A DNA stretch of 64,000 nt from contig CAXFIU010000001.1 of assembly GCA_964003245.1 (NCBI GenBank), positions 20,589 through 84,588 of the forward strand. Direction: 5' to 3'. Origin of the DNA: an uncultured Candidatus Poseidoniales archaeon (GTDB lineage Archaea > Thermoplasmatota > Poseidoniia > Poseidoniales > Thalassarchaeaceae). Shown here piece after piece: positions 29,308-49,094 of the stretch. Within the stretch, counting starts at the first letter, position 1. The number at the start of each line of letters is the position of its first letter. Under the pieces are notes generated by a model. That model worked only from the letters and a program-made list of their open reading frames with translations. It did not search any database and was not told the origin of the DNA. The translations under genes and the position numbers were made by a program.

Positions 29308-30069
29308 TCATCTTAACCCTAACTTACGTCCAATAATTGCAATTGGATCGTAGTATTCTGTAACTACTCTCTCTTTGAGAGGTATTATTGCATTATCAGT
29401 GATATTAATACCTGCAGGGCATACTTCAGTACAACAGCGAGTAATATTACAGTAACCTATACCAAAATCATCTTTAATTTGAGGAATCCTATTTTCAACA
29501 TCTAACGGATGCATTTCCAATCCTGCTAAACGTACAAAGAATCTTGGCCCAGCGAACTCATCGAACTTTTGATGTTCTCGGAGTACATGACATGTGTTTA
29601 CACATAACATACATTCAATACAACCTCTAAACTCTTGGATTCGATTAGCTTCGTTTTGATTAAATTCCCAATCTAATTCATCAGGACCATTTACAGGGAC
29701 CATTTTCTTATTCATTTCATATGCCCATGATGTATCAGTAACCAAGTCTTTTGTTAATGGAAATGATTGCATTGGTTTCACAAGAACTGGTTCGCCATCT
29801 GGAGTTTCTTCCATCACTTCTTCCATTCTTGTCATACACATAAGACGTGGTTTACCATTAACTTCTGCAGAACATGAACCACATTTACCTGCTTTACAAT
29901 TCCATCTGCAAGATAGATCTGGAGCATGCTCAGCTTGTATTCTATGAATTACATCAAGAACTACCATGCCTTCATCCATCTCAACAGTATAATCTACCAT
30001 TTCTCCAAAGGGATCACCATCTTCATCAGGTTCTCCTCTGAAAATCTTGAATGTCACATCTTCAGCCAT
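29308..30069 (-). CDS. sdhB: Succinate dehydrogenase/fumarate reductase iron-sulfur subunit
   Basis: CRWNCKAGKCGSCSAEVNGKPRLMC (2Fe-2S) and CIECMLCVNTC / C..TRCCTEVCP (4Fe-4S/3Fe-4S) cysteine clusters; GGAGG SD inside sdhA 3-prime end. Confidence 0.85.
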   Translation of the reverse strand: MAEDVTFKIFRGEPDEDGDPFGEMVDYTVEMDEGMVVLDVIHRIQAEHAPDLSCRWNCKAGKCGSCSAEVNGKPRLMCMTRMEEVMEETPDGEPVLVKPMQSFPLTKDLVTDTSWAYEMNKKMVPVNGPDELDWEFNQNEANRIQEFRGCIECMLCVNTCHVLREHQKFDEFAGPRFFVRLAGLEMHPLDVENRIPQIKDDFGIGYCNITRCCTEVCPAGINITDNAIIPLKERVVTEYYDPIAIIGRKLGLR

Positions 30070-30070
30070 T

Positions 30071-31897
30071 TTACTCCTCCTCATGTAAGTCTTCAACATC
30101 TAGTAATTTCTTTAGTTCCTCGTCTATCGGTGGGTATCTTCGATGCTCAATTGTCATTTTATCTTTCTTAGTTATAACACTATTTATTTTGCCCCAATAT
30201 TTGTAATCAGGCGTTGGAAAATCATCTCTAGTATGCCCTCCTCTCGATTCTTCCCTATGCAATGCGGCTAGTGTACACATTCTACTTACATCAATCATAG
30301 CATCAATTTCTAGTGCTTGATGCCAACCTGGATTATAAATTCGACTATTTCCTGTAGATGTGTTTTTACCACGTTTTTCTAAATCATCTAAATCTTTTAA
30401 TGCCTCTTTTAATAATTTTTCAGTTCTAATTATCCCTACTTTATACTGCATCATTTCTCTTAGATCTTCTACTACTTTCGCTGGATTCTCTCCATCCTTT
30501 CTATTTAATGGTGCTAATGTTTCTTCAATTGCATTTTTAATTTCAGAAGAATCTATAGGAAGAAAATCCTCAATATCTTTGGCTACCAATGCAGCGTTTT
30601 CTCCAGCAATTTTTCCAAATACAATAAGGTCTGAGAGTGAATTTCCTCCAAGTCTATTTGCGCCATGTAGTCCTGTAGCAGCTTCTCCGGCCGCAAACAT
30701 CCTAGGGACCGTAGTTTCTTGTGTCTCCGGATGTACTTTTATTCCCCCCATCACATAGTGCGCTGTAGGTCCTACTTCCATTTTTTCAGTAGTAATATCA
30801 ACTGCTGCTAATTCCTTGAACTGATGATACATTCCTGGAAGTTTCTTTCGTACTTGATCAGGTTCTCTCCAAGAAATATCCAGATATGCGCCTCCATGAG
30901 CGCTTGCTCTGCCTGCATCTCTTTCGGAATTAATCGCTTTAGCAACAACATCTCTTGTCAATAATTCAGGCGGTCTACGAACAGTTGCTAACTTCCCTTC
31001 TACGATCTCAGAAACCCATTCTAAGGCTTCTTTTTCAGTATCGGCAAATTCATCCTTGTACATCTCGGGAACATAGTCGAACATGAATCTCTTTCCTTCA
31101 GAATTAGTCAGCATACCACCCTCTCCTCGAACACCCTCAGTAACTAAAATTCCTTTTACTGACGGTGGCCAAATCATCCCTGTAGGGTGGAACTGAATGA
31201 ACTCCATATCTCCCATTTCAGCACCAGCCCAATAGGCTAGCGCATAACCTTCTCCAGTGTACTCCCATGAACCGGAGCAAACAGCCCAACACCTTGTGGC
31301 ACCTCCAGTTGCCATTACAATGGTTTTTGCTTTGAAAACATGTAATGACCCATCATTTCTATCATAGGCAAAACAACCAGATATTTTTCCATCTGTTTTG
31401 AACAGTTTACGGACAGTAAATTCCATAAATATCTCCATACCCATATGAACTCCTTTCTCTTGCAGAGTTCTGATTAATTCCAAACCGGTTGCGTCTCCGA
31501 TGTGTGCTAGCCTAGGATAGGTATGTCCACCAAAGTTTCTCTGATTTGTAAGTCCCTTCGGCGTTCTATCAAAAACCGCACCCCAAGTTTCCAATTCTCT
31601 AATTCTGTCCGGTGCTTGTTGAGCATGAATTTTTGCCATTCGCCAGTCATTTAGATATTTTCCACCTTTCATTGTATCTCGAAAATGAGTTTGCCAATTA
31701 TCGCGAGGATCTTTGTTGCCTAATGCGGCTGCAGCGCCTCCTTCAGCCATTACTGTATGCGCCTTTCCTAGCATTGACTTACATATCATTGCGACACTAA
31801 CGCCTGAATTACTAGCCTCTATTGCGGCTCTCAAGCCTGCACCACCAGCTCCAATTATTACGACATCATGTTCATGAATAATGTAATCCTCACTCAT
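30071..31897 (-). CDS. sdhA: Succinate dehydrogenase/fumarate reductase flavoprotein subunit
   Basis: [22 protein letters not shown]-binding fold, [10 protein letters not shown]-like His (FAD attachment) region, C-terminal ...[10 protein letters not shown]. Confidence 0.9.
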
Positions 31898-31906
31898 TAT
31901 ATCACC

Positions 31907-32719
31907 TCACATTATAATCCAATAATGGTCCTCAATTCTACCTTCAGAGACAGCCCAAACAAATAAATCTCCAAGGAAAACCATAACCAAACTAGTCCAA
32001 AACCAGAATGCATGCTCAATATTCAAATTACTAATTTTAATGTATAATTTGCCCATTATCCCTGAGATTCCGCCTCTCCATCGATTCATTCCTCCTCCAA
32101 AGAGATGTCTGAATGCATGACAAGAGGCAACATACATGAATAGGAGAAATGATTCAGTCGCCAAAACTAAGGTTCCCACGGATATTCCAAATTCAGTTCC
32201 ATGGTTAAACCACATTGTATGATATACATCGTAAACTTTCATTGAAAGAATAATTATTGCTAGATACAACATATATCTATGGATATTATTTAGTACAAAT
32301 AGTCCAGTCTCTCCTTTGTATCCCAGTCGATAATTAACTTCAGGCTTTGCAACAACACACGCTGTAGGATTCTGAAAAAATACTCTATGGTAGACTTTAC
32401 GCATGTAGTAACAAGTTCCTCTAAATCCAAATGGTATCCACAGAATTAGTAAGGCAGAATTCATCCAATTAGGCGTCTGTAAATGAAACAAATGTATCAC
32501 ATCTGGTGAAAAAATCGGTGAAGTTACTCTGTGATCATCATAGTGAATTGCTCCATCCCAAATTAAAACCCTTAATGATGTGTAAATCAAAGCCAGAGTT
32601 AATCCAAAACCCATCCAAAATGGCTTAGTCCACCATTTATCAATTCTATCTGTTTTTCCAAACCCCTTTTTTAGGGGCAGTTTAATCGAATCAGACAAAG
32701 AACTCACCAACTGGTGCAA
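31907..32719 (-). CDS. Putative succinate dehydrogenase membrane anchor / cytochrome b-like subunit
   Basis: Hydrophobic His-rich protein immediately upstream of sdhA on the same strand; assignment by context only. Confidence 0.4.
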   Translation of the reverse strand: MHQLVSSLSDSIKLPLKKGFGKTDRIDKWWTKPFWMGFGLTLALIYTSLRVLIWDGAIHYDDHRVTSPIFSPDVIHLFHLQTPNWMNSALLILWIPFGFRGTCYYMRKVYHRVFFQNPTACVVAKPEVNYRLGYKGETGLFVLNNIHRYMLYLAIIILSMKVYDVYHTMWFNHGTEFGISVGTLVLATESFLLFMYVASCHAFRHLFGGGMNRWRGGISGIMGKLYIKISNLNIEHAFWFWTSLVMVFLGDLFVWAVSEGRIEDHYWIIM

Positions 32720-34725: not shown

Positions 34726-36957
34726 ATGTCAAATGAGGAAGTAGATGACTTACAACTTAGAGTAGCCAAGGCAATACCAAGCGATGTAGGGCATGGTCGT
34801 GCACGAGTACCTTTTGATAACGATTTAAATCTGAAACCAGGAGATATTGTTGAGATTACTGGAGAGCAAAAAACCGCCGCTATCGTTTGGCGTTGTCGTC
34901 CAGAAGATGCCAATCTTGGTATTATCAGAGTAGATGGAATTATTAGGAAAAATGCAGGTGTTTCTCTGGGAGATAAAGTTTCAATTCGTAAAGTGGAGAC
35001 ACAGCCTTGTCAGAAATTAATCCTTAGTCCTGTAATGGCTAAGCAACAGAAAGTACGTTTTGGGCCCGGAATTGAGGGATTTGCTCGCAGAGGCCTGAAT
35101 AAGAGACCAGTAGTTTCAGGAGATAGGATATTCATACCTGGAATGACTCTTTTTGCAGAGGCTTTACCGTTCCAGATAGTCAAAACAACTCCTAAAGGGA
35201 TAGTCCAAGTACTTCCCGACACTGAAATAATAATCAAAGAAGAACCTGTTGATGAAGAAGATGAATCTGGCCAACCAATTTCAACAATTTCATATGAGGA
35301 TATAGGAGGAATAGGTGAGCAACTTCAGAAAGTTAGAGAAATGATCGAACTTCCATTGAAGCATCCTATTCTATTCCGAAGATTGGGAATCGATCCCCCG
35401 AGAGGAGTTCTTTTACATGGTCCTCCAGGGACTGGAAAAACATTGATTGCGAAGGCTGTTGCATCAGAAACTAAAGCCAATTTCACTTCAATAAACGGGC
35501 CTGAAATAATTTCGAAATATTACGGAGAGAGTGAAAAACAATTACGTGAAATATTTGATGAAGCAGCTGCTAATTCTCCGGCTATAATTTTCATTGATGA
35601 ATTAGATTCTATTGCTCCTAAGAGAGAAGATGTTAGTGGAGAAGTAGAGAGAAGAGTCGTTGCTCAATTATTGACTTTACTTGATGGTATGCAAGGTAGG
35701 GATAATGTCATAGTAATTGGTGCAACTAATCGTCCTGATGCAATCGATCCGGCTCTTCGTCGTGGAGGGCGATTCGACCGAGAATTAGAGATAGGAGTTC
35801 CAGATAAGAATGGCCGTTCAGAAATCATTGGAATCCATACCCGTGGAATGCCAATTAGTGATGATTTTGAAATTGAATGGTTATTGGATAATACTCATGG
35901 ATTTGTAGGGGCAGATATTTCAGCTCTTGTTAGAGAAGCTGCAATGAAAGCTCTTAGAAGATATTTGCCAGAGATTGATTTAGACGAAGAACAGATTCCA
36001 GCTGAAGTACTTGAAAAGATGGAAGTCAGAATGGCAGATTTCAAATTAGCAATTAAGGAAATTGAACCAAGCGCTCTAAGAGAAATATATCTTGAAGTCC
36101 CCGAAGTAAGTTGGGATCAAGTAGGAGGATTAACAGAAGTCAAAGAAAGACTGAAGGAAAGTATTGAATGGCCCCTCACAAGACCTGAGATGTTTGACCA
36201 TTTTGGTATAAATCCTCCACGGGGAATAGTTCTGTTTGGAGCACCTGGGACTGGTAAGACACTTATTGCTAAGGCGATTGCAAATGAAGCCAAAGCGAAT
36301 TTCATTACAATAAAAGGACCGGAATTAATTTCTAAATGGGTGGGTGACTCAGAGAAAGCTGTTAGAGAGTTATTCAAGAAAGCTAAGCAATCTAGTCCTT
36401 CTATAATTTTCTTAGATGAATTTGAGAGTATTGCTGGAGTCAGGAGAAGTAATACCGGCGAAGGTTCGGATGTGATGAATAGAGTAGTTAATCAATTACT
36501 AAGTTCAATGGATGGTGTTGAATCAATGGAAGGAGTAATCGTCGTTGCAGCTACTAATCGCCCAGAAATGATAGATCCCGCATTACTAAGAAGTGGAAGA
36601 TTCGAAAGAGTCCTCCACATCCCCCCTCCAGATGTTGATTCAATTAAGGCAATTTTGAAAATTCATTCCGAGCCGATGCCTCTTGGAAAATTCAAGATCG
36701 AAGACTTAGCTCCACAGTTAGTTAATTACACCGGTGCAGATATTGAAGCTATATGTAGGGAAGCTGCTTTAATTTCAATGAGAGCCGAGAAAAAAAGTGT
36801 ATCTAAAAAGCATTTTGAAGAGGCAATAAATAGAGTTCGTCCTACGATTACCGATGAAATGATGGATTATTACAATAGAATGGAAGCAAGATTAACTAGT
36901 GGTCTTGAATCAGTTCGACGTAGTTCAGAGGTCCATTCAGGAATTGAATCCGCTTGA
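34726..36957 (+). CDS. cdc48: Cdc48/VCP-like AAA+ ATPase (two AAA domains)
   Basis: N-domain, then two Walker A sites [20 protein letters not shown] and [20 protein letters not shown], two DE(L/F) Walker B sites; no C-terminal HbYX motif. Confidence 0.9.
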
Positions 36958-36967
36958 GGGAAATAAA

Positions 36968-37210
36968 ATGCCAGTAACATTCGGAAGAGAAATCATTAAT
37001 CGTGAAGTTCATGATAGTGCAGATGATAGACTGGGTAGCGTTACAGATTTTACTATAGATATTGAAAATGGACAGATCACTAATATTCTAGTTATGATTG
37101 AACCAGATATAAATCCTCAACTTCTTCCATGGCCTACTGTAAATGGTCTTTTATCTGTTCCAGTTGAAGAGATTGATAGTGTTGGCAAGGTAATTAAACT
37201 ATCAGAATAG
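36968..37210 (+). CDS. PRC-barrel domain small protein
   Basis: MPVTFGREIINREVHDSADDRLGSVTDFTIDIENGQITNILV...; ATG begins 11 nt after the cdc48 stop. Confidence 0.45.
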   Translation: MPVTFGREIINREVHDSADDRLGSVTDFTIDIENGQITNILVMIEPDINPQLLPWPTVNGLLSVPVEEIDSVGKVIKLSE

Positions 37211-37298
37211 CATGATGCATAACCGTTCATTCGTTCACAACCATCTTAAGTCGAAGTTCAGGCTCGATTTTTGTCGTATAGACTAGGTGGGGTATAGG

Positions 37299-38951
37299 AT
37301 GGCCAATTTTCGCGATTATACTCGTAGATTAACTACCTTGAAAGCACGTCGTAATATGTTGATTGGAGCTTTTTGGATTTTACTAATTCTCTTAATTTCT
37401 ACAATAGCAGCAACTTACGTCACAGATGGTCAAACTCAGCAATCAGCATATGGCGATGACTGGAACGATCTTGGTTTGTTTAGAGCTGAGATAAATAGCA
37501 TGGGAGTAGATACAACTGCATTGGTATCAAGCCCTCTATTATTGAGTGAGATCGATCATCCTGAAGAAGCTATTTTCATTATATCGGGTGTAGAGAAAGA
37601 TACTATCTCACTGCCTAGATTTACAGGTGATGAGAATGTGATTGAATTATCTGAGGGTTCGGGCTACACAACTTCTGAGATACTTGCAATCGATGAATTT
37701 GTTGAAGCAGGTGGTACTGTACTTTTGATGGATGATAAAGGCTATTCTTCAACTTTAGCAGAACAGTTTGGATTAGAATTCTCAGGCCATACCTTGTATG
37801 ATGGAGAAGCATATGCTACAGAATTAGATTACAATTTCATTTGGGTAAATACTACATCTGCCTTTAATTTCACAACTAATTCTGGTTCTTTATCAAGCAT
37901 TCATCCATGTCTTAGAGATACAGATACTGATGGTTTCATTGATTTACTAGACACTGACCCTTATGATATTACAACATTTCCAGCAGGAATTACTCGTGAA
38001 GATGCAGGATTGTGCTCCCACCGATGGATATCAGAAACACAATGGGATTTCTCTGAGAATTATAATTTGTTAACTAACCAACCATCTGCTTTCAATGCAG
38101 GTTCTTATAATCCCGTAGAAAATAGATATGATATAGGAAAATCTACTCTTGATTCATATTTAGATACTAATGATGACGGTAATCTCACGATTGGTTCTTC
38201 TGCATTTGGAATTGATGGAGATGAAGTAGGCCCATTTGCTGTTTATGTCCGTTACTGTGCAGATCGTTTGTGTGTAGGGGCTGACTCTGGAAGAGTACAT
38301 TTTGTTGCAGATGGTTCAGTATTAACTAATTCATTGTATGACGATGCATTTTACTCAGGAGTAGACGATGTTGTTCCTTCAAATGATAATAGGAAATGGG
38401 CGCTCGACATTATTGCAGAATCTTTATTGATTGGCAATTCGAGTGCAAAAAGTTCTTCAAATGCGATTGTAATTTTTGATGAATCAAGACATCAACAACC
38501 TACATTATTCGGAGATACATATAACTTAATGTATTACTTATTGATCTATTTTACCAATGATTGGATGGCAATGTTACTATTATTCCTTGGTTTATTTATT
38601 ACTTTAGAGGCGGTTTTAATTCGTAAAGAAGATCCTGAAAACTGGCGACATGTATTCAGAATAATTTACTACGGTTTTGGAGACGCTAGGAGATATGAAT
38701 ATTATCAAAAACCTGAAAAAATAAGGCAGGTATTACTTACGAGAATACGAAATCTGAATACGCTTTCAAGAGAAGAATTTGATGCACTCCCCGCTGCTGA
38801 ATTACAAAGAATGATTGATGACCAAGTATTAACTAAATTCATTTTCGAAGATAGAAGATATAAGCCCGATGAATTGGTTGGGATTGTGAAAAGAATCAAG
38901 GAATGGGGTTCAACTAATTCTGAAGAGGAGGTAGAATATGTGGACTCGTAA
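37299..38951 (+). CDS. DUF4350-like membrane-anchored ecto-protein (N- and C-terminal TM, large Asp/Thr-rich external domain)
   Basis: N-terminal TM MLIGAFWILLILLISTIAA, external domain with IVIFDESRHQQ block, C-terminal TM MAMLLLFLGLFITL; first gene of SD-coupled three-gene unit. Confidence 0.45.
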   Translation: MANFRDYTRRLTTLKARRNMLIGAFWILLILLISTIAATYVTDGQTQQSAYGDDWNDLGLFRAEINSMGVDTTALVSSPLLLSEIDHPEEAIFIISGVEKDTISLPRFTGDENVIELSEGSGYTTSEILAIDEFVEAGGTVLLMDDKGYSSTLAEQFGLEFSGHTLYDGEAYATELDYNFIWVNTTSAFNFTTNSGSLSSIHPCLRDTDTDGFIDLLDTDPYDITTFPAGITREDAGLCSHRWISETQWDFSENYNLLTNQPSAFNAGSYNPVENRYDIGKSTLDSYLDTNDDGNLTIGSSAFGIDGDEVGPFAVYVRYCADRLCVGADSGRVHFVADGSVLTNSLYDDAFYSGVDDVVPSNDNRKWALDIIAESLLIGNSSAKSSSNAIVIFDESRHQQPTLFGDTYNLMYYLLIYFTNDWMAMLLLFLGLFITLEAVLIRKEDPENWRHVFRIIYYGFGDARRYEYYQKPEKIRQVLLTRIRNLNTLSREEFDALPAAELQRMIDDQVLTKFIFEDRRYKPDELVGIVKRIKEWGSTNSEEEVEYVDS

Positions 38952-40191
38952 AGCAGCTATCCTCCTTACAAGCGGAATAAGCTTGATTCTCATAGGTATG
39001 ATGATTTCTAATTTCCAATTAATGATTGTAGGCCTGACTTTCGTTTCATTCTTAGCAATTAATGGGTGGGTTGAGGGACATTCAGATTTAGAAATAAAAA
39101 GAGAAGTTTCTGCTGTCAATGTTTACAAAGGAGATGACATAAATGTTGTACTAACTATAACAAATAAGTCATATCGGCGTACACAACAGTTAGAGGTTTT
39201 TGATAATGTACCTCATGAGATGAAAATGAGAAAAGGTATCAATCTAATGCGAATGAACCTAGGCCCTGGACAAACTGCCACGATTCGTTATACAGTTCGT
39301 TGTCCATTACGGGGGCACTATACCATAGGTCCGACATCTATTAGGTATCGTAATACATTCAATTTATTTGTTTCCGAAACTAGTATCGGAGATCGATCAG
39401 ATATCACAGTATTCCCTCAAGTTAGAGATGTGGAAGAGGCCTTGATTCGTTCTGATGTTCCAAAGATGTATACTGGAGCTACCACTCTAAAAACGCCAGG
39501 GCAAGGAATGGAATTTTACGCTTTGAGAGAATATTTCCCAGGGGATTCATTCCGCTCAATTAATTGGAAAGCTTTTGCTAGAACTGGGGAATTAATGGTT
39601 AATGAGAAGACTAGAGATGCGGTAACTGACGTTTTTATTATTCTCGATACTCGTGACGTAGCAAGAATTGGAACTGTGCTAAAGAATCCATTAGAAATGG
39701 GTACAGTAGCCGCTGCTTCAATCGCTAATTATTTCATCAAGAGAAGAGATTCGGTTTCTTTGGTTACCTATGGTGAAAGAATGGATTTCCTCCCTCCTGA
39801 AACTGGAGATAAGCAACATTACAAGGTTCTAAGCCAATTGGCTGCAGTTGAATCGAAAGGGAGTATGCCCTTACAAGCAGTAACTAATGCCCTTTCACCA
39901 AGAATTTCTAGAGGTTCTCCTGTATTTATTATCAGTAGTTTAGAAGGGGATGGTACGACTTTATCAGCAATTAGAAATCTCTCTGGCAAGGGTCATGAAG
40001 TAATTGTTTTGTCTCCAAGTAGCATTGATCTTGAGAGGCTTGTAAGTAGGATTCCAAGAATGGCCTATGAAGTATTAAAATTGGAAAGACAAAATCGATT
40101 AACAGCTATTTCAGGATATGGAGCCAAAGTAATAGACTGGACACCCAGTGTTGAATTATCTCAAGCTTTATTGCAAATTAGGACAGTATAA
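38938..40191 (+). CDS. DUF58 family protein (vWA-like, MoxR-associated type)
   Basis: N-terminal TM pair then REYFPGDSFRSINWKAFARTGELMVNEKTRDAVTDVFIILDTRD, matching the DUF58 core; GGAGG SD, 14-nt overlap with upstream gene. Confidence 0.65.
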   Translation: MWTRKAAILLTSGISLILIGMMISNFQLMIVGLTFVSFLAINGWVEGHSDLEIKREVSAVNVYKGDDINVVLTITNKSYRRTQQLEVFDNVPHEMKMRKGINLMRMNLGPGQTATIRYTVRCPLRGHYTIGPTSIRYRNTFNLFVSETSIGDRSDITVFPQVRDVEEALIRSDVPKMYTGATTLKTPGQGMEFYALREYFPGDSFRSINWKAFARTGELMVNEKTRDAVTDVFIILDTRDVARIGTVLKNPLEMGTVAAASIANYFIKRRDSVSLVTYGERMDFLPPETGDKQHYKVLSQLAAVESKGSMPLQAVTNALSPRISRGSPVFIISSLEGDGTTLSAIRNLSGKGHEVIVLSPSSIDLERLVSRIPRMAYEVLKLERQNRLTAISGYGAKVIDWTPSVELSQALLQIRTV

Positions 40192-40205
40192 GGAGGTTAG
40201 AAAAT

Positions 40206-41399
40206 ATGGCAATTGATGTAGTACCAGAATCAAAAACTCTCCATATCAAAAAATTACGTTTTAGATGGCAAGTACTTCTGTTACAAACTTTATCTACAGT
40301 TTCTCTATTATTTTTAATGCGTAAGATGAGTGAATTATATGGTGAATGTTCTGATAAGTTTGTCGCAAACTCAGGTTCAGATGGTTGGTGTCCAGCATAC
40401 GAACACACTAGAGGTTTGAGATGGATGGAATCTAATGGAAATACTATTTTACCTAATTTTATCACTGGAATTAATGAATCTGGTTTTGATGCGTTTACTA
40501 TGCCTTTGATACTATGTGTTGTTTTGACTGCATTATGGGTATTCGTGCAAACACGCGGAGAAAGAACTCAATTAATTATTAAAAGAACATTAAGTATAAT
40601 CTTGGCTTCTTGGTTCCTTCTTCCATTCCTAATTTCTTGGTTAATAGGCATGGTTTCATATGGCCCTTATCTTCCAATAGGAAATGCTGATGAGCAATAT
40701 AATCATATCGAATTAGTTTTAGTTCCATTCGAGTTTTTCTTTGAATTAATCTTTTTTGGTATTGTATTTGCTCCAATTCTTATAGGTTTAATGGGAATTT
40801 GGGGTCTTTCTAAGAGGATGATTACATGGGCTACAGGTTACTTTTTGATGGTGATTGGAATCCATGCAATGTTGACATTTGAAGGGGTAACCACCGCAGT
40901 AGATGTTGGATTGAGACCTCTATCTGCCCAAATTGGTGAAGCGACCTTATTTGGAGGATTAATTTCTCCATTAGCGTTTGATTTACTTACAGTAGCTATA
41001 CTATTGTTGGTATTCTTAGAATCTGGATTAGCAGTAATAACAAATCTTGAGTATACTTCTGTGCTTCCCGAAGCATCGAAGAATGATCCAGAATATGTCA
41101 ATCAATTTAATAATATTATTAATGGACATCTAATACACTTATTCGGAATAATGATTGTTGTAAGTTTAACAACAGCCCTTGCTCTTGAATTTGATGATTT
41201 CTTAATTTCATTCGTTGGGTTCTTAGAAGGTTCTCAATGGTCTGGTCAAGTAAAGGAGTCTTTAGAATTACAACTAACTTATGGTAAAGTAATTTCAGCA
41301 TCATTATTCATGATTGTTGTTGCCGGCGGACGATTCGTAATTCCTTGGCAAAGACTTACCGGAGTTATTGAGACAGGCCTTTCAAAAATTAGAAATTAG
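40206..41399 (+). CDS. Hypothetical polytopic membrane protein (third gene of DUF4350/DUF58 unit)
   Basis: AAGGAGG SD 8 nt upstream; about 9 TM segments; N-terminal Cys-containing extracytoplasmic stretch. Confidence 0.4.
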   Translation: MAIDVVPESKTLHIKKLRFRWQVLLLQTLSTVSLLFLMRKMSELYGECSDKFVANSGSDGWCPAYEHTRGLRWMESNGNTILPNFITGINESGFDAFTMPLILCVVLTALWVFVQTRGERTQLIIKRTLSIILASWFLLPFLISWLIGMVSYGPYLPIGNADEQYNHIELVLVPFEFFFELIFFGIVFAPILIGLMGIWGLSKRMITWATGYFLMVIGIHAMLTFEGVTTAVDVGLRPLSAQIGEATLFGGLISPLAFDLLTVAILLLVFLESGLAVITNLEYTSVLPEASKNDPEYVNQFNNIINGHLIHLFGIMIVVSLTTALALEFDDFLISFVGFLEGSQWSGQVKESLELQLTYGKVISASLFMIVVAGGRFVIPWQRLTGVIETGLSKIRN

Positions 41400-41671
41400 C
41401 TCAATCTTAAAATTTTATGAAGAGCTCCCCAAATAAAAATAATTAATACAAATTCAATAACTATGATTATAATATTATTTTCAATACCCAAAGATTGCGG
41501 AAGTTCCACAATCTGTTCTTGAAATAAGATTGTTATTAAAATAGTAATGAAAACTAAAAAACGATGTAACCAAGGACCAAATCTACTTACTTCATTTTCA
41601 TTGGTTAAGGAGGTGTGGTCATTCATACCTCTATCAGGGGTATCGGGGTCATCAATCCATCGCTTAATCAC
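41396..41671 (-). CDS. Possible small two-TM membrane protein
   Basis: 91-aa ORF convergent on the preceding operon; hydrophobic C-terminal half; may be spurious. Confidence 0.25.
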   Translation of the reverse strand: MIKRWIDDPDTPDRGMNDHTSLTNENEVSRFGPWLHRFLVFITILITILFQEQIVELPQSLGIENNIIIIVIEFVLIIFIWGALHKILRLS

Positions 41672-41718
41672 TATCTTTGACTCGTTGGGTTCAAGCGGAG
41701 AATACTTGACGGCACATT

Positions 41719-42714
41719 ATGGATGGAGGGCTCTCGATACAATCCTGCAGTCAATGTAGGGAACCATCCATTCTATTTCAGGAATATAGTGGTCAACATT
41801 TGTGTGGTAAACATTTAGCTTCATCAATCCGGAAAAGAGTAGCTAAGGAAGTTCGTTTACAGATTAATCTACCTAAAGATGCTAGACATTCTGATGGTAC
41901 TCCATTCAGAATATTTGTAGCTATTTCTGGGGGTAAAGACTCAGCAGTGTTATTGAGTATGCTTGTCGATATTATTGGCCAAAGAAGAGATGTAGAAATT
42001 ATTTCTGGCTGTATAGACGAGGGTATTGATGGCTATCGTTCTCCTTCACTTGAACTTGCAAGAGAACTTTCCGAATCTCTAGATGTAAGATTTGAAACTT
42101 TATCATATGAGGAAATGGGGTATGATAGGATGGATAATGTAGTAAATAAAATGGATGTTATTGGAGAAAACAATCCTGATGCTAAGGGAATGATGCCATG
42201 TTCTTATTGTGGAGTTTTTAGAAGACAGGGAATCAATGCTTTAGCAGAGAAAGTTGGAGCCGACATTATGGCTTTGGGACATAATCTCGACGATATGGCT
42301 CAATCAATAATAATGAATTTTCAGAAAGGAAATATCGAGAGATCGGTCCGATTGGCCCCTCATACTGATGATCCAATAGAGGGTCTTGCACCTAGAGTTG
42401 TTCCTCTACGTTGGATTCCTGAGCAAGAGATTCATGCTCATGCAATTTCCTCAAATTTACCTATTCATGATGGGGATTGCCCCCATGCCCCTGGTGCAAT
42501 GAGACAATTAAGTCGCAGAATAATTGCTGATATGGAAACAATTACTCCAGGTTCTAGGCATGGTTTATTGCATTCTTTAGATCAAATACGTAAGTTATAC
42601 AAAGAAGTCAATCCTATTAAATCAGAAATTAAGAATTGTGAGGAGTGTGGTGAAATAACTAGTAGAAGGATTTGTCAAGCCTGTACTATGAAACGTTGGT
42701 TAGAAGAAAATTAA
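41719..42714 (+). CDS. PP-loop ATP pyrophosphatase, tRNA thiolation enzyme (Ncs6/NcsA/TtuA-like) with N- and C-terminal zinc fingers
   Basis: VAISGGKDSAVLLSML PP-loop (SGGKDS); CSQC...C..H N-terminal and CEECGE...CQAC C-terminal zinc motifs. Confidence 0.7.
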   Translation: MDGGLSIQSCSQCREPSILFQEYSGQHLCGKHLASSIRKRVAKEVRLQINLPKDARHSDGTPFRIFVAISGGKDSAVLLSMLVDIIGQRRDVEIISGCIDEGIDGYRSPSLELARELSESLDVRFETLSYEEMGYDRMDNVVNKMDVIGENNPDAKGMMPCSYCGVFRRQGINALAEKVGADIMALGHNLDDMAQSIIMNFQKGNIERSVRLAPHTDDPIEGLAPRVVPLRWIPEQEIHAHAISSNLPIHDGDCPHAPGAMRQLSRRIIADMETITPGSRHGLLHSLDQIRKLYKEVNPIKSEIKNCEECGEITSRRICQACTMKRWLEEN

Positions 42715-44223: not shown

Positions 44224-45213
44224 ATGATAATCAGTCGGACCCCAGTTCGAGTTTCATTTTGTGGAGGTGGAACCGACGTAGATTGGTTCTCTACGTCATC
44301 TGAAAAAGGCGGAATGGTTACATCTCTGGCCATTGATAGATATATCCATGTAATTGTCAATAGGCGTTTTGATGAAAGAATTAGACTATCTTATTCAAAG
44401 TTAGAAGTTGTAGATAATTTTGAAGATCTTGAACATGAATTAGTTCGTGAATCAATGAGAATAACTGGCGTCACTTCTGGAGTCGAAATAACTACAATAG
44501 CCGATATTCCATCTAGAGGTACTGGTTTAGGGTCTTCTTCTGCCGTTACTGTAGGTTTGCTAAATGCTTTACATTGCTTCGCAGGGCGAAATGTTTCGGC
44601 GTCTCAATTGGCATCTGAAGCATGTGAAATTGAAATTAAGATATTAGGACAGCCTATTGGTAGACAAGATCAATATGCTGCAGCCTTCGGTGGAATAAAC
44701 TCCATCAAATTCTGTTCTGATGGCAATGTAATCGTCGATCCAATTAATATTTCCGAAAAAATACAGTCAAATATTTCAGATGAATTCACTCTTATCTTCA
44801 CTGGTCAGAATCGTTCCGCCTCTGCTGTACTATTAAATTCAGAAGAAGAGGGAAAATCTGCTATTGATAATTTAATTAGAATAAGGGAACAGGCAGATGA
44901 AGCGAGAGATTTTCTTTCTTCAGGAGATCTATCAAAACTAGGTCTCCTTCTCAATGAAGCATGGTCTATGAAAAGAGGTATTTCTTCAAATGTAAGTAAC
45001 GATTTCCTTGATGAGATGTATAGCCAAATAATGTCTACTGGCGCTAATGGCGCTAAATTATTAGGTGCTGGAGGGGGGGGATTCTTCCTTGTCCATGGAG
45101 ACCAACAACTTCGTGAAAAATTACAGTCCAATTTCTCTTCTGAGCATAGAATGTTGCCTCTGAACATTGACTTTAATGGTTCATCAATCATTTTTAATGA
45201 TTCAAGAGTGTGA
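44224..45213 (+). CDS. GHMP-family sugar kinase (D-glycero-D-manno-heptose-7-phosphate kinase HddA-like)
   Basis: SRTPVRVSFCGGGTDVDWF N-terminal motif and PSRGTGLGSSSAVTVG GHMP ATP-binding loop; start could be 44203. Confidence 0.6.
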   Translation: MIISRTPVRVSFCGGGTDVDWFSTSSEKGGMVTSLAIDRYIHVIVNRRFDERIRLSYSKLEVVDNFEDLEHELVRESMRITGVTSGVEITTIADIPSRGTGLGSSSAVTVGLLNALHCFAGRNVSASQLASEACEIEIKILGQPIGRQDQYAAAFGGINSIKFCSDGNVIVDPINISEKIQSNISDEFTLIFTGQNRSASAVLLNSEEEGKSAIDNLIRIREQADEARDFLSSGDLSKLGLLLNEAWSMKRGISSNVSNDFLDEMYSQIMSTGANGAKLLGAGGGGFFLVHGDQQLREKLQSNFSSEHRMLPLNIDFNGSSIIFNDSRV

Positions 45214-45217
45214 AAAG

Positions 45218-47323
45218 ATGAACAAAAAAATATTCTCATTTGTATTGATGTTGCTAGTTATTTTTAGCCTGAATAACACTTCTGTAAGTGCTACAAATGA
45301 TCAAAATATTGGCGATGAAGATATTATCTCTTCAATTACAGGATATTCAAAGTTTATCATAGAAGAAGAAATAAAAGTTAATTCACAGTTTAATGCATCT
45401 TGGGAGTCATCTATAATTCTCTCTGATCAGATTGGAACTGATCTTCTTCAGAACTCGGAATTAGGACTTAGGGCCCAAATTGATATTCATTTAGGAAATT
45501 CTGATGGCTTTGTAGATTCAAATGAATCAGATTTATTCGATCAATTATTTCGTATAGAAAGGAACTGGACCAATTCTGAAAATGGTGGTTGCTGTATTTT
45601 TGATTATAATCCTCTTTATTCACCCCAAGGAGTTAATTTACTTACATCTAAAGTAGTATCAGGTCCAATAGAATTAGAAAACTCCACATGGGGGTGGAAT
45701 GAGTCAACTGATTTGATAGGGCAGACAGATAGTCGAGCTACTAGAATTATCGACTTTCCAAGAGTCGGTTCATTAGTTGAAGAAGTTCCGTTAATGATTT
45801 TCCTTCCAGCAGATTGGGAATACACATATAGTGCAATGGGAGAAATATTTTCCGGAGAACCAGGTGAATTTATTGTAAATCGGTCCGAAGCAAATGTTGC
45901 AAGTAATATTCGAGTAACAATTTCTAATAATCAAATGCCCAATGCTCTGGGTTACAGAACTTCAACTGGAACAATGATTACTTTAACCTCTAATACATTA
46001 TATTATGGAGAATGTGAAGATAGTACTTTAGATCATAATCAACAATGGTGGACATTGTCAAACAATGGCGCTCTTGTTTTGACACACTATGGATCTAGTC
46101 TAAGTTTCATTTCTCAAGATTATGGTTTCCAAGAAGGAGATGTTGCTAGTATAGTTATGCATTGTAAAGATTGGTTTAATGTCACAGATACATGGCATGA
46201 AGATATAGTTATTGACTCTATTTTCCCAACTTGGGAATCAGTAATCTCTTACATAAATGATGATAATGAGAGAATTATACTTGATATTAATCAATCTATC
46301 GAAGTTAAATCAGATACAAGTATTTCATTTAATATTTCAGCAGATGATCCTAATTCTGAGTCACCTGTGGATATTAAGATCATATCAAATAAGACTCCTA
46401 ATTATATTCATAGAGATGTAAATAATTTAGCTTTCTCAGATGTATTTTATCAAAATAATGATGTAAACGGACTCCATCTAAATCTTTCTGAACGTCATAA
46501 AGCTAAGTATCCTACATCATGGTCAGTTAATCTGACAATTTCTGATGGTGCAGGGAATACGATTTATGAAGAATGGGAAATAATTGTTTTAGATGGTATA
46601 GGGCCAACAATAGTTCCTGACTTAATAATCAATAATCAATCGATTTCATCTAATAACCTCGCTAGAGAGGGTGATCTAATTACAATCTCTCTACAACAGT
46701 CTTTTGATGATTTAGATTCAATTAATGATACAAAATGGTCTCTATCAATTGATAATAAAGTAATTTCTGATAATGTTACAATGAATCAAATAGATAAAAT
46801 GACTCTCGGACCGTTCACTTCTGGAACTCATATCTTTAGTATAGACGCATATGATTCTTCTTTGAATCATCAGAATCTTGCATTTGGATTAGCAGTTTCT
46901 CCAAGTCTGGGAGTAGATATTGAATTAATTTCTACCGAAGTTGATGGTCAATTGATTGAGGGAAATACGGTTTTATTTTCAGCATCTATGAAAAACAATA
47001 GAGCATCTTCTGGATCTGGACAATTTTGTGTAAATAGTCAATGTGGGCCATTTGTTGGAGTACCCGCTGCAAATTCTAACTCTCCAGGATATTTCGATGT
47101 AGAATTGAGTTTTGAGTTGAGCAGTTCGACTCCGATTACTACATATTTTAAGTGGCAAAGTGAGAGTGCCGGAGATAATGGTCAAATAAATATTGAATCT
47201 GACATTCCAGTTGAACCATCTTGGCAAAAACCCATACAAACAGTTTTGTTAGTCTTTGTATCTTTATCATTATTTGTTATTATTGTTAATCGCCTCTGGG
47301 GAGTAGATTCTCAAAGGCCATAA
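45218..47323 (+). CDS. Large exported surface protein, N-glycosylation-sequon rich, C-terminal TM anchor
   Basis: Signal peptide MNKKIFSFVLMLLVIFSLNNTSVSA; more than 25 NxS/T sequons; C-terminal TM VLLVFVSLSLFVIIV then short basic tail. Confidence 0.5.
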   Translation: MNKKIFSFVLMLLVIFSLNNTSVSATNDQNIGDEDIISSITGYSKFIIEEEIKVNSQFNASWESSIILSDQIGTDLLQNSELGLRAQIDIHLGNSDGFVDSNESDLFDQLFRIERNWTNSENGGCCIFDYNPLYSPQGVNLLTSKVVSGPIELENSTWGWNESTDLIGQTDSRATRIIDFPRVGSLVEEVPLMIFLPADWEYTYSAMGEIFSGEPGEFIVNRSEANVASNIRVTISNNQMPNALGYRTSTGTMITLTSNTLYYGECEDSTLDHNQQWWTLSNNGALVLTHYGSSLSFISQDYGFQEGDVASIVMHCKDWFNVTDTWHEDIVIDSIFPTWESVISYINDDNERIILDINQSIEVKSDTSISFNISADDPNSESPVDIKIISNKTPNYIHRDVNNLAFSDVFYQNNDVNGLHLNLSERHKAKYPTSWSVNLTISDGAGNTIYEEWEIIVLDGIGPTIVPDLIINNQSISSNNLAREGDLITISLQQSFDDLDSINDTKWSLSIDNKVISDNVTMNQIDKMTLGPFTSGTHIFSIDAYDSSLNHQNLAFGLAVSPSLGVDIELISTEVDGQLIEGNTVLFSASMKNNRASSGSGQFCVNSQCGPFVGVPAANSNSPGYFDVELSFELSSSTPITTYFKWQSESAGDNGQINIESDIPVEPSWQKPIQTVLLVFVSLSLFVIIVNRLWGVDSQRP

Positions 47324-47375: not shown

Positions 47376-49094
47376 GTGATTCTACTACCCGACTACCCTG
47401 ATCGAGTGATTCGAGATCATAGAGTTCGAGTTGAAAGAATAGCATTATCTGTAACTTTCTTACTTATTTTTTCCGCATCATGGTGGTTATTTTCTGGTTT
47501 ATTTGGTTCACCAGAGATATTACCTCGTTTAGGTCCAATATCTATGATATTTATTTCTTCATTAGTTGTAATTGACTTGATTGATTATGGACTGATTCAG
47601 AGATCTAGGTTAGGTGTAATTGCCAATATCTCTTATCCTAGTCTTTTAGCACTATCTGTCTCTAATATCGGATATAATGATGCCTTAATATCGGGATTAA
47701 TATATTTCCTATTAGCAATATTTCTCTGGTCTGTTGCTAGGAAAAACCTCTCCATAACTCATTCATCTAGGAGATGGAGAGGATTAACTAGTTTTCTCGG
47801 ACTCGCATTTTCAGCCTCAATTATGTATTCCATTTCGTCGGAAATGTACGTTTATTTATTTGTCTTAATTTGTGTACTAGTAACTATGGCGCCTGATTTA
47901 CTATCCAAGGATGAAAATTACAAATCAAGGAAAAAATTCACCAAGAAACTTGATGCCGTTGAGGGGCAGGTGTTACTATTACGGAGCAAAGGAATCTCTC
48001 TAGAACAAGCCTCCTCAATTTTGAAGAAAGCAAGAGAGGAATGTTGGAATGATCCTGAGAGAGGTATGGGGATGATCTCACTTGCTGAAGAAGAAATTGA
48101 ACGAGTTCAAGCGTTGGCTAAAGACTTAGATGACATAAGACAAGAAACTCATCTTTTTTTGAAGAAAGCAGAATCTATAGCTCCTGGAATAAATGGTCCA
48201 AGGAATGCATTTGAATCTGGAGAAAAAGAATCTGATTTCGGGTCATTGAGGGAGGCAGAGATATTCTTCCGGCTTTCCAAAAAGAAGTCCGAGGAGGTAA
48301 TTCAGTATTGGCAAAATGCAATTGATGAAATTGCAAGCGCTGAAGAACTAATTTCTAATATCAAACAGATTCAATTAGACTCAATAAAAAACATAATTGA
48401 TTCTGCCAAGGAAGCACTTGAATCGGAAAATCCAATTGAAGCAATTAAAATAGCTTCTTCAGTTTCCGGACATCTTGACAGTTTAGAAGCTACCACAATA
48501 GAGGCCAAAGAAGCAATAATAGAAGCAGAAAAGGCGATTGAAGAGGTTGATGATAGTTTCTCAATTAGTACCAAAGAGAGATTATTAGAGTCAAAGAATG
48601 CTTTAGAATCAGGAAACTCTTCCCTTGCTAAAGGATTGGCTACAAGTATTCTCAGAGATATAAATAAGGTTTCTGAATCTATGCAGAAAGTACAACGAGG
48701 ACTTAGGCAGAAGAAAAAATTGATTGCAAGATTCCCTACTGGTCAATCTGGTGATCAATGGAGAAATGAATTGAAGAATATTGAAGATAAAGTAGATTTA
48801 GAACAGTGGGTTGAAGCATCTAGACTCTTAGAATCACTTACCAAAGATCTTCAAATATATGAAAAATCAAAATCAGAGGCTTTAGAATTATACACTTTTG
48901 TAGAAAGTGAGTGGATGGACTTAAGGAAAAAACTAGATTCTTCTAATATTAAAGTCAATGACTCAATGAGAATGAATGCTGAGAATAAAATTTCTGAATG
49001 TAAGAGATTATTAGATGAGGGAGATATAGATTCTACACTTTCATTATTGGGAGAAACTGATGAAATCATCGAGAACCTTAGACGAAGAATCTAG
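47376..49094 (+). CDS. Membrane protein: N-terminal 4-5 TM domain + about 370-aa cytoplasmic coiled-coil/alpha-helical domain
   Basis: Hydrophobic N-terminal third; remainder highly charged with heptad-like E/K/L periodicity; GTG start per ORF track. Confidence 0.4.
   Translation: MILLPDYPDRVIRDHRVRVERIALSVTFLLIFSASWWLFSGLFGSPEILPRLGPISMIFISSLVVIDLIDYGLIQRSRLGVIANISYPSLLALSVSNIGYNDALISGLIYFLLAIFLWSVARKNLSITHSSRRWRGLTSFLGLAFSASIMYSISSEMYVYLFVLICVLVTMAPDLLSKDENYKSRKKFTKKLDAVEGQVLLLRSKGISLEQASSILKKAREECWNDPERGMGMISLAEEEIERVQALAKDLDDIRQETHLFLKKAESIAPGINGPRNAFESGEKESDFGSLREAEIFFRLSKKKSEEVIQYWQNAIDEIASAEELISNIKQIQLDSIKNIIDSAKEALESENPIEAIKIASSVSGHLDSLEATTIEAKEAIIEAEKAIEEVDDSFSISTKERLLESKNALESGNSSLAKGLATSILRDINKVSESMQKVQRGLRQKKKLIARFPTGQSGDQWRNELKNIEDKVDLEQWVEASRLLESLTKDLQIYEKSKSEALELYTFVESEWMDLRKKLDSSNIKVNDSMRMNAENKISECKRLLDEGDIDSTLSLLGETDEIIENLRRRI

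Follow-up and report, generated by a model that had tools for sequence, protein, structure and literature searches.

A closely packed DUF4350-DUF58-membrane protein operon of Marine Group II archaea with no MoxR gene in its neighbourhood

Three genes lying one behind the other in the stretch of Poseidoniales DNA analysed here (64 kb, hereafter the window) are a genuine, closely packed operon of Marine Group II (MGII) archaea, and are probably co-translated. The locus fits the arCOG01314/arCOG02742 system, split from its ATPase and equipped with a lineage-specific membrane partner. The explanation that we favour, with a probability of roughly 55%, is that the gene products form a three-part complex of this kind in the cytoplasmic membrane, whose MoxR ATPase is encoded at another place in the genome. 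The locus would then represent, in local form, a surface or secretion system predicted for archaea. The operon genes (g1, g2 and g3) and the features around them are as follows:

34726-36957, + strand: Cdc48/VAT AAA+ ATPase (Pfam match; context, membership in the module not claimed)
36968-37210, + strand: PRC-barrel protein, 80 aa (Pfam match; context, membership in the module not claimed)
37211-37298, + strand: conserved 88-nt spacer from the PRC-barrel gene to g1 (conservation of length and sequence)
37299-38951, + strand: g1, 550-aa DUF4350/arCOG01314-type bitopic membrane protein, start ATG
38938-40191, + strand: g2, 417-aa DUF58 protein (arCOG02742 type)
40206-41399, + strand: g3, 397-aa polytopic membrane protein, about 8 transmembrane helices (TM)
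41396-41671, - strand: small convergent ORF, 91 aa, two hydrophobic stretches (ORF call)

A preliminary description of this DNA had proposed a coupled three-gene locus on the + strand, which both the layout and the synteny bear out. The Poseidoniales origin was confirmed as well. The 14-nt overlap of g1 and g2 (38938-38951) is as described there, while the g2-g3 distance is 14 nt and not 15. Likewise, the GGAGG said to precede every gene is present before g2 (38927-38931, 6 nt upstream of the ATG) and g3 (40192-40196, abutting the g2 stop codon and 9 nt upstream of the ATG), but the ribosome-binding site of g1 is GGTGG (37286-37290), a position occupied by GGTGG or GGAGG in orthologs; the mechanically called ORF of g1 opens within this site, at GTG 37287. 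Co-occurrence of the three genes in related genomes was also confirmed, their order being kept in 85/85 Poseidoniales loci of sufficient reach (80 species-level genome loci and five metagenome loci), with a g2-g3 gap of about 2-50 nt across all genome loci. The dN/dS ratio is ~0.01 for g1 and g2 and 0.03-0.08 for g3, and the operon is inherited vertically and strongly constrained within Poseidoniales. In coastal metatranscriptomes, its transcript coverage is very low (about 0-0.1).

In almost every Thalassarchaeaceae locus, the spacer in front of g1 has a length of 88-91 nt, and it retains the sequence GATGC..GTTCA..CAnAACGGTCTTAAG..GAAGTTnAGGCTCG. Only 6 of 91 positions differ between the window and locus L003, synonymous sites of the flanking genes being near saturation (dS 0.5-1.2), and a core, A(A/C)CGGTCTTAAG, persists in the distant loci L081 (68% GC) and L085. 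The motif occurs a single time upstream of a gene in the 64-kb window, and the spacer gave no Rfam match and no consensus RNA fold. It is probably the operon's own promoter/operator, followed by a short leader that ends in the ribosome-binding site.

Judged from its sequence, g1 is a DUF4350-type protein, as had been proposed: the Pfam match of the window copy is weak (E 1.4e-5, 25.9 bits, under the 30.4-bit cut-off) and confined to about 55 residues (115-179), but it recurs in 10/10 orthologs tested (best E 4.8e-8), and PF14258 is a precomputed assignment on most of the best 120 homologs. A weak similarity to ABC_transp_aux/GldG was also found in the Pfam search, and the AF2 model, with a pLDDT of 35, does not confirm a fold. 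The expected succession of TM, large ectodomain and TM is there as well, with TM segments at 22-40 and 423-441 enclosing an ectodomain of about 380 aa, which contains conserved Cys and DxDxDG-like motifs, and with a very conserved C-terminal tail of 109 aa, predicted to be cytoplasmic.

The DUF58 assignment of g2 is clear (Pfam E 1.6e-21, 76.9 bits, cut-off 23.4), and COG1721/arCOG02742 is the annotation given to its ortholog in SIMO Bin 19-2, an MGIIb MAG. The protein consists of a TM hairpin (6-24, 27-45), an Ig-like domain that gives weak DUF11/BatD matches, and a VWA-like DUF58 domain in which D237-x-R239 occupies the place of the DxSxS metal site of VWA proteins. Of the three proteins, g2 is conserved best: identity is 80-100% in the 80 genomes and still 69-71% in the loci that are most distant. 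The D-x-R and about 40 further residues are common to g2 and MoxR-linked haloarchaeal DUF58 proteins. All residues that are invariant in the MoxR-adjacent haloarchaeal proteins are retained, and nothing suggests that the ancestral partner interface has been lost.

The third protein had been described as having nine TM and no family; no family or fold match was indeed found, but the number of long hydrophobic helices is about eight. These helices hold many conserved polar residues. Two motifs are conserved, WCPSYEHTRGL, in a predicted outer loop with two invariant Cys, and QWSGQVxESLELQxTYGKVISA. The protein is neither transglutaminase-like nor DUF4129-like, and there is no profile similarity to DUF7519 either. 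The family is limited to Poseidoniales and seems not to exist outside the g1-g2 context.

Among known systems, the closest is the 'putative novel secretion / membrane remodelling system' of arCOG01314 (Makarova, Galperin, Koonin 2015, PMC5898192, section 3.2 and Table 2), whose function, like that of DUF58, is a prediction and which is, like the present locus, experimentally uncharacterised. Both have a DUF4350 protein that is anchored in the membrane and exposes a large GldG/flavodoxin-like domain to the outside (here g1), an adjoining Ig-like and VWA protein of arCOG02742 (here g2) and additional membrane proteins in the operon. In contrast, the MoxR/GvpN ATPase (arCOG00434/00435) of most described operons is absent from the operon and the window, as are S-layer-like Ig proteins; the partner is a Poseidoniales-only 8-TM protein instead of the listed 2-3 TM or 5-TM families; and in g1 the N-terminal TM looks uncleaved and the conserved tail appears cytoplasmic.

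In SIMO Bin 19-2, an apparently paralogous locus (genes 973-977; PMC9723583, Suppl. file 4) encodes proteins of 313 aa, 534 aa (weak PF09822), MoxR, DUF58 (arCOG02742) and again 313 aa. As judged by annotation alone, it resembles the operon in that an arCOG02742 DUF58 gene comes after one of GldG/DUF4350-like type, in the same organism group, but MoxR lies between the two, the flanking genes differ, there is no g3 homolog and transcript coverage is about ten times higher than that of g1-g3. Haloarchaeal plasmids (NZ_CP011949, NZ_CP034941, NZ_CP101460, NZ_CP100001) carry clusters of the order DUF4129 or transglutaminase, DUF7269, DUF58 and DUF7519, with an optional convergent MoxR. Their DUF58 proteins have the same architecture as g2 (25-28% identity over about 90% of its length, with shared invariant residues including D-x-R), a membrane protein gene again follows DUF58 and MoxR is adjacent or not, whereas the partners are those just listed and not DUF4350 and g3. 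The bacterial MoxR (MRP subfamily)/Bat aerotolerance operons (MoxR-DUF58-BatA/B (VWA)-BatC (TPR)-BatD-BatE) have in common with our locus a DUF58 protein carrying a TM hairpin at its N-terminus and, in g2, the weak BatD/DUF11-like Ig domain. MoxR, a MIDAS-bearing VWA protein, TPR and BatD/E genes are all missing here, however, and the host is an aerobic marine archaeon. To our knowledge, Bat operons do not include DUF4350. The Bat-like comparison of the preliminary description is a loose one, the archaeal arCOG01314 system being closer (PMC5898192).

That no MoxR gene lies within 10 kb had been noted from the start, and this extends to the whole window: a Walker-A scan of its six frames returned Cdc48 and two unrelated ORFs but no MoxR, and tblastn with two haloarchaeal MoxR queries against the window and the 85 loci gave just weak matches within Cdc48. 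No MoxR flanks the orthologous loci within 10 kb either. The term 'MoxR-less variant' nevertheless fails at the genome level, as published tables count MoxR among the core genes of MGII (156/158 and 92/92 MAGs, 248/250 together; Tully 2019, PMC6336850, Suppl. Data 10) and SIMO Bin 19-2 has, besides the orthologous locus, two MoxR genes at other positions (Damashek 2021, PMC9723583, Suppl. file 4). The table of this MAG contains exactly two COG1721 (DUF58) and two K03924 (MoxR) genes, one MoxR being inside the paralogous DUF58 operon and the other stand-alone and unlinked. According to these published annotation tables, which give presence by annotation and not by MoxR sequence, MoxR is missing from the neighbourhood only. 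Because MoxR is not adjacent in two haloarchaeal DUF58 operons either, its absence from the neighbourhood is nothing special.

In the proposed complex, g1 would display its probably glycosylated, Ca2+-binding ectodomain, with a GldG-like core, at the cell surface and re-cross the membrane into the conserved cytoplasmic tail. The TM hairpin would hold g2 in place with its Ig-like and VWA-like DUF58 domains in the cytoplasm, a topology suggested by positive N-terminal flanks and TM positions, although the Ig-vWA protein was drawn as extracellular by Makarova et al. (PMC5898192). The third protein may be a lineage-specific 8-TM subunit standing in for the small membrane proteins of other archaea; since the archaeal versions found elsewhere contain no homolog of it, only gene order speaks for its taking part in a shared mechanism. 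If MoxR/VWA pairs are a guide, the DUF58 domain could serve as the adaptor on which a MoxR AAA+ hexamer docks, and this hexamer would assemble or remodel either the complex itself or a surface substrate that the complex handles. Candidates for the ATPase are the stand-alone MoxR adjoining aIF5B (MG2_1709 type) and the MoxR of the paralogous DUF4350-like-MoxR-DUF58 operon. We infer complex formation of g1-g2-g3 and MoxR dependence, and the cellular role may be surface or secretion maintenance.

The operon could also encode an ATPase-free, static complex of the membrane or surface (an anchor, an adhesin or substrate-binding platform, or a transporter accessory like GldG) with DUF58 as a purely structural scaffold. 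The lack of an ATPase gene inside the operon, the MoxR-free haloarchaeal operons, the ABC_transp_aux/GldG similarity of g1 and the polar residues in the g3 helices, as in a transporter or membrane enzyme, are consistent with this, as is D-x-R in place of the metal-binding DxSxS. The D-x-R is equally found in DUF58 proteins encoded beside MoxR, and is therefore a subfamily trait and not a mark of lost function. Moreover, MoxR is universal in MGII, DUF58 and MoxR copy numbers agree in the one MAG, and the MRP subfamily of MoxR has DUF58 as its signature neighbour (PMC12067865, PMC11834572), which leaves such a static module rather unlikely. A functional g1-g2 pair with g3 as an unrelated transporter or enzyme on the same transcript would account for the lack of a g3 counterpart in haloarchaeal and published arCOG01314 neighbourhoods and for its evolution being several times faster (33-46% identity in distant loci, against 69-71% for g2). 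Against this, all four full-length family members looked up directly follow the DUF58 gene, and the short g2-g3 gap, the ribosome-binding site at the g2 stop codon and the seeming absence of the family from other contexts point the same way, so that we hold a mere passenger role to be very unlikely.

Just as little probability attaches to Cdc48, the PRC-barrel protein and g1-g3 being one unit, in which the Cdc48/VAT unfoldase takes the role of MoxR and, for example, extracts or remodels the complex. In its favour, the five genes adjoin on the same strand in every locus of sufficient reach, including the distant L081, L082 and L085, the gaps are short (10 nt for Cdc48-PRC, about 88 nt for PRC-g1) and the region downstream of g3 is variable. 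However, a divergent aldehyde dehydrogenase gene upstream is equally syntenic, so that vertical inheritance in one order explains the conserved arrangement, and the PRC-g1 spacer is separately constrained and promoter-like. The Cdc48 gene is also the only full-length one (arCOG01308) in the SIMO Bin 19-2 table, hence a housekeeping copy, and is more transcribed than g1-g3 (coverage of 0.2-0.4 vs 0-0.1). We know of no link between Cdc48 and DUF58, nor was a Cdc48-DUF58 case found outside Poseidoniales, and the annotation tables place MoxR genes in the genome.

The small 2-TM ORF convergent to g3 exists as described, but does not belong to what is conserved at the locus. It is detectable only in relatives whose flanking genes reach at least about 90% identity, where it shows 34-82% amino acid identity, and it has a dN/dS of 0.22-0.70 (0.01-0.08 in the operon genes); in more distant loci, other genes occupy its position.

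The three-gene operon of the window belongs to a known, predicted archaeal type of DUF4350/DUF58 membrane system, of which it is a lineage-specific variant. It consists of the following genes:

37299-38951, plus strand: g1, DUF4350-type gene, 550 aa
38938-40191, plus strand: g2, DUF58 gene, 417 aa
40206-41399, plus strand: g3, polytopic membrane protein gene, 397 aa

A 'putative novel secretion or membrane remodelling system' was described around arCOG01314, a membrane-anchored DUF4350 protein with a GldG/flavodoxin-like ectodomain (Makarova, Galperin and Koonin, 2015; PMC5898192). Its partners are an Ig-like and vWA protein (arCOG02742/02747), a MoxR/GvpN ATPase (arCOG00434/00435), found in the neighbourhood for the 'majority of operons', and membrane and S-layer-like proteins; the accessories comprise S-layer-like Ig and small membrane proteins, arCOG02884, 03875, 07126, 11232, and others (PMC5898192). 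The window operon resembles this system in g1, a membrane-anchored DUF4350 protein with a large extracellular domain, and in g2, an Ig-like and VWA (DUF58) protein encoded in the same operon. It differs in the lack of a MoxR/GvpN ATPase gene. Its sole accessory protein is g3, which has 8 TM helices and matches no Pfam or NCBIfam family. The Bat-type module to which the locus had been likened in the preliminary description is a more distant comparison: of the bacterial Bat/MRP-MoxR operon (MoxR first, DUF58, MIDAS-bearing VWA BatA/B, TPR) DUF58 alone is present here, while MoxR and the VWA, TPR, and BatD/E genes are all absent. tblastn found no AAA_3 homolog at the locus, whose other genes encode Cdc48, a PRC-barrel protein, TtuA, PyrI/B, SdhA/B, and similar proteins.

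The three-gene plus-strand layout with a 14-nt overlap of g1 and g2 had been described correctly apart from small details: the g2 stop codon and the g3 start are separated by 14 nt rather than 15, and g3 has about 8 membrane helices rather than 9. The GGAGG reported before each gene is indeed found 6 nt 5' of the g2 ATG and 9 nt 5' of the g3 ATG, where it directly abuts the g2 stop codon, but g1 is preceded by GGTGG, with GGAGG at the same place in several orthologs.

Scanning one genome per prokaryotic species recovered 308 relatives of g2. The best 80 of these 308 show 80-100% identity and all come from MAGs of Marine Group II (Poseidoniales), predominantly Thalassarchaeaceae (MGIIb), with 100% identity in UBA439. 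When the window proteins were compared by tblastn with these best-80 loci, a single fixed order was seen wherever contigs reach, namely aldehyde dehydrogenase (minus strand), Cdc48, PRC-barrel, g1, g2, g3, a variable stretch, and TtuA; the expected co-occurrence of the three genes in related genomes is thereby borne out, the g1-g2-g3 order being fixed in all loci that extend far enough. The Cdc48-PRC-DUF4350-DUF58-g3 block is also present on the contigs of the most distant full-length g3 relatives (46-68% GC; one contig of 3.0 Mb), whose identity to the window is 69-71% for g2, 43-60% for g1, and 33-46% for g3. In pairwise comparisons, dN/dS comes to about 0.01 for both g1 and g2 and to 0.03-0.08 for g3, with dS approaching saturation. 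The three genes are a real operon, inherited vertically and strongly constrained. The operon is found in no fewer than 308 species-level genomes and purifying selection on it is very strong, so it probably serves a core function of the Marine Group II cell envelope. These archaea are among the most abundant microbes of the surface ocean and, to our knowledge, none has been cultured.

The DUF4350-type assignment of g1 and its TM/ectodomain/TM layout stand: the match to Pfam DUF4350 is weak (25.9 bits, under the 30.4-bit cut-off; residues 115-179), yet 10/10 orthologs also match (best E 4.8e-8), and the match is precomputed for most of the best 120 g1 homologs. Membrane helices at 22-40 and 423-441 flank the ectodomain and are followed by a 109-aa C-terminal tail, which is the best-conserved part of the protein. 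The ectodomain contains conserved cysteines (four of them invariant), several N-x-S/T sites, and two conserved DxDxDG-type Asp-rich motifs, DTDTDGFIDLLDTDPYD and DTNDDGNLT (residues ~207-223 and 289-297), a composition that suggests an insertion in the DUF4350 core, namely a surface domain that binds Ca2+ and is disulfide-bonded and glycosylated. The fold of g1 stays unconfirmed because its AF2 model, for which the alignment was shallow (12 homologs, 72-93% identity), was unusable (pLDDT 35); a PDB sequence search returned chance matches alone for g1 and nothing for g2.

For the middle gene, DUF58 identity is firmly established (PF01882, E 1.6e-21, 76.9 bits for a gathering cut-off of 23.4), and weak Ig-like DUF11/BatD matches lie N-terminal to this domain. 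Two hydrophobic helices (6-24 and 27-45) form an N-terminal hairpin; from this and the positive N-terminus (MWTRK), a cytoplasmic location can be inferred for the Ig-like and VWA-like domains. A scan of viral contigs with the g2 alignment found zero relatives, and the best plasmid-borne relatives are haloarchaeal, with 25-28% identity. They are encoded in DUF4129-or-transglutaminase/DUF7269/DUF58/DUF7519 clusters, four of which were inspected on haloarchaeal megaplasmids:

L086, 5333-8778: haloarchaeal cluster
L087, 4777-9699: haloarchaeal cluster
L088, 3452-7742: haloarchaeal cluster
L089, 3496-10776: haloarchaeal cluster

A convergent MoxR gene lies just downstream in two of the four, and none is listed within 7 kb in the other two, although the PLSDB gene tables are incomplete. 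About 40 invariant residues are common to g2 and the haloarchaeal plasmid DUF58 proteins in the alignment, including D237-x-R239 of g2 at the position of the VWA metal site. Since D-x-R is common to g2 and MoxR-linked haloarchaeal proteins, the alignment indicates that the absence of DxSxS is a trait of this DUF58 subfamily, MoxR-linked members included, and no sign that g2 has lost a partner.

The preliminary description had asked whether the third protein has a transglutaminase-like fold; it shows neither a transglutaminase-like nor a DUF4129 domain: none of 17 family members has a Pfam or NCBIfam match, even at E up to 5, and an archaeosortase-like identity is rejected on the same grounds. 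Identity with DUF7519 was likewise rejected, with no hhalign match and no profile similarity. A g3 profile run against 1.84 billion representative proteins gave only 82 matches, 5 of them full length. Two motifs are strikingly conserved: QWSGQVxESLELQxTYGKVISA and WCPSYEHTRGL, the latter in what is predicted to be an outer loop containing invariant cysteines. The g3 protein is a separate family, a partner restricted to Poseidoniales.

The reported lack of MoxR within 10 kb holds for the entire 64-kb window, in which a six-frame Walker-A scan detected Cdc48 and two unrelated ORFs only. Two genuine haloarchaeal MoxR proteins (AAA_3 at E 4e-63), used as tblastn queries, gave weak matches inside Cdc48 only, both in the window and in 85 related loci, and MoxR is absent within 10 kb in these 85 orthologous loci. 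At the genome level, informative data come from SIMO Bin 19-2, an MGIIb MAG of genus O1 annotated in Supplementary file 4 of Damashek et al. (2021) (PMC9723583). Its contig 4 carries Cdc48, a small ORF, a 547-aa protein, DUF58 (the g2 ortholog, arCOG02742), a 403-aa protein, and TtuA, and is the same locus as the window operon. Contig 40 carries a set that by annotation is paralogous to the operon, made up of a 313-aa protein, a 534-aa protein (weak PF09822), MoxR (K03924, arCOG00434), DUF58 (arCOG02742), and another 313-aa protein, while a second, stand-alone MoxR adjoins aIF5B on contig 58. This MAG thus has two DUF58 and two MoxR genes, one pair adjacent and the other unlinked (PMC9723583). 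More broadly, moxR is recorded in 156/158 and 92/92 MGII MAGs (Tully, 2019, Supplementary Data 10, sheet 'MGII Core'; PMC6336850). By these two published MAG annotation tables, the presumed MoxR partner has its gene at another site of the genome, and the 'MoxR-less variant' of the preliminary description has to be abandoned. Nothing known is overturned: an existing prediction is refined, with the operon assigned to the arCOG01314/DUF58 membrane systems, which are predicted to be driven by MoxR, and its putative ATPase located elsewhere, and the 'MoxR-less' puzzle is removed. Newly identified are g3, as an order-specific partner, and a constrained, probable control region.

This region is the 88-nt spacer that separates the PRC-barrel gene from g1 (37211-37298), whose length is kept at 88-91 nt and whose sequence is also conserved across MGIIb. 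It follows the pattern GATGC..GTTCA..CAnAACGGTCTTAAG..GAAGTTnAGGCTCG, after which many clades have a short hairpin ahead of the GG(A/T)GG site. Between the window and the related locus L003, 6 of 91 positions differ, whereas the flanking genes have a dS of about 1, the spacer being more conserved than their synonymous sites; the core A(A/C)CGGTCTTAAG is retained even in a relative of 68% GC. A structured RNA or sRNA, such as a C/D box RNA, was considered and rejected, with no Rfam match and no RNAalifold consensus; the hairpin, found beside the ribosome-binding site in many orthologs, is out of register between clades. A generic MGII promoter was also rejected, as the motif occurs only once upstream of a gene in the window. 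Judged from these sequence patterns, the spacer probably combines a leader with a promoter or operator specific to this locus. A AACGGTCTTAAG box in the same region is a putative promoter box.

Co-oriented, overlapping or abutting, constrained genes, two of them from families that accompany MoxR, and MoxR genes elsewhere in the genome point to a membrane complex of g1, g2, and g3 with MoxR supplied in trans, to which we give a probability of roughly 0.55; the placement in the arCOG01314/DUF58 systems is much firmer than this mechanistic model. In such a complex, g1 would display its large ectodomain and return its conserved tail to the cytoplasm, g2 would offer a VWA-like docking domain there, and g3 would make up the core or channel within the membrane. 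Binding to g2, a MoxR hexamer would then, at the expense of ATP, assemble or remodel either the complex or the surface substrate of the complex. The obvious candidate ATPase is the stand-alone MoxR adjoining aIF5B, as the other MoxR has its own DUF58 neighbour. That the complex works without any ATPase seems unlikely, and it is quite improbable that g3 is a mere passenger on the transcript, a reading against which stands the finding that profile searches and locus comparison placed the g3 family in no other context.

A different motor could be envisaged in Cdc48, whose adjacency, with the PRC-barrel gene, to the operon is kept throughout the order. Cdc48/VAT and the PRC-barrel protein would then be wired to the DUF4350-DUF58-8TM complex in a five-gene unit, Cdc48 replacing or supplementing MoxR and the 88-nt spacer acting as an internal control element, which would be a previously unknown link from archaeal Cdc48 machinery to a MoxR-type membrane module. 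However, the divergent aldehyde dehydrogenase gene is just as well kept, the 88-nt spacer resembles a separate promoter, and the ortholog of the window Cdc48 is the only full-length Cdc48 in the SIMO Bin 19-2 table; both Cdc48 as the motor and the five-gene unit are accordingly quite improbable. The complex served by a MoxR from elsewhere remains our preferred reading.

Several observations concern the surroundings of the operon. The Cdc48/VAT and 80-aa PRC-barrel genes, 10 nt apart (34726-37210), lie directly upstream of it in all Poseidoniales loci examined, and identity declines much faster for the PRC-barrel (34-60%) than for Cdc48 (75-89%). Downstream, the small convergent 2-TM ORF (41396-41671, minus strand) that had been included in the locus is ruled out as a component by its conservation and dN/dS. 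The g3-TtuA interval is variable, and was delimited in the window and in three distant loci:

Window, 41396-41719: a fast-evolving 91-aa ORF
L082, 7160-11652: g3-TtuA interval
L085, 11446-15344: g3-TtuA interval
L081, 11285-12810: corresponding position, with unrelated genes and TtuA absent

In other lineages, this interval holds three or four different minus-strand genes, one of which has an unannotated product some 1,090 aa long. L081 (ENA ERZ26167216), which carries the aldehyde dehydrogenase/Cdc48/PRC/DUF4350/DUF58/g3 block, is a contig of 3,002,195 bp with 68% GC over the 21 kb examined, unusually large and GC-rich compared with the 35-50% GC of other Poseidoniales loci. A second gene with strong ABC_transp_aux/DUF4350 matches lies some 10 kb further downstream on this contig (20469-21200, truncated where the locus ends).

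Further unannotated genes and their neighbours in the window are:

45167-47323, plus strand: ORF of 718 aa, no Pfam match at E up to 0.001
47376-49094, plus strand: ORF of 572 aa, no Pfam match at E up to 0.001
29308-30099: succinate dehydrogenase iron-sulfur subunit
30071-31897: succinate dehydrogenase flavoprotein subunit
31907-32719, minus strand: ORF of 270 aa, no Pfam match

Genes 273 and 272 of SIMO Bin 19-2 are ORFs of similar size to the first two, in the same syntenic position and likewise unannotated. The 270-aa ORF immediately precedes the succinate dehydrogenase genes and may encode the membrane anchor of this enzyme.
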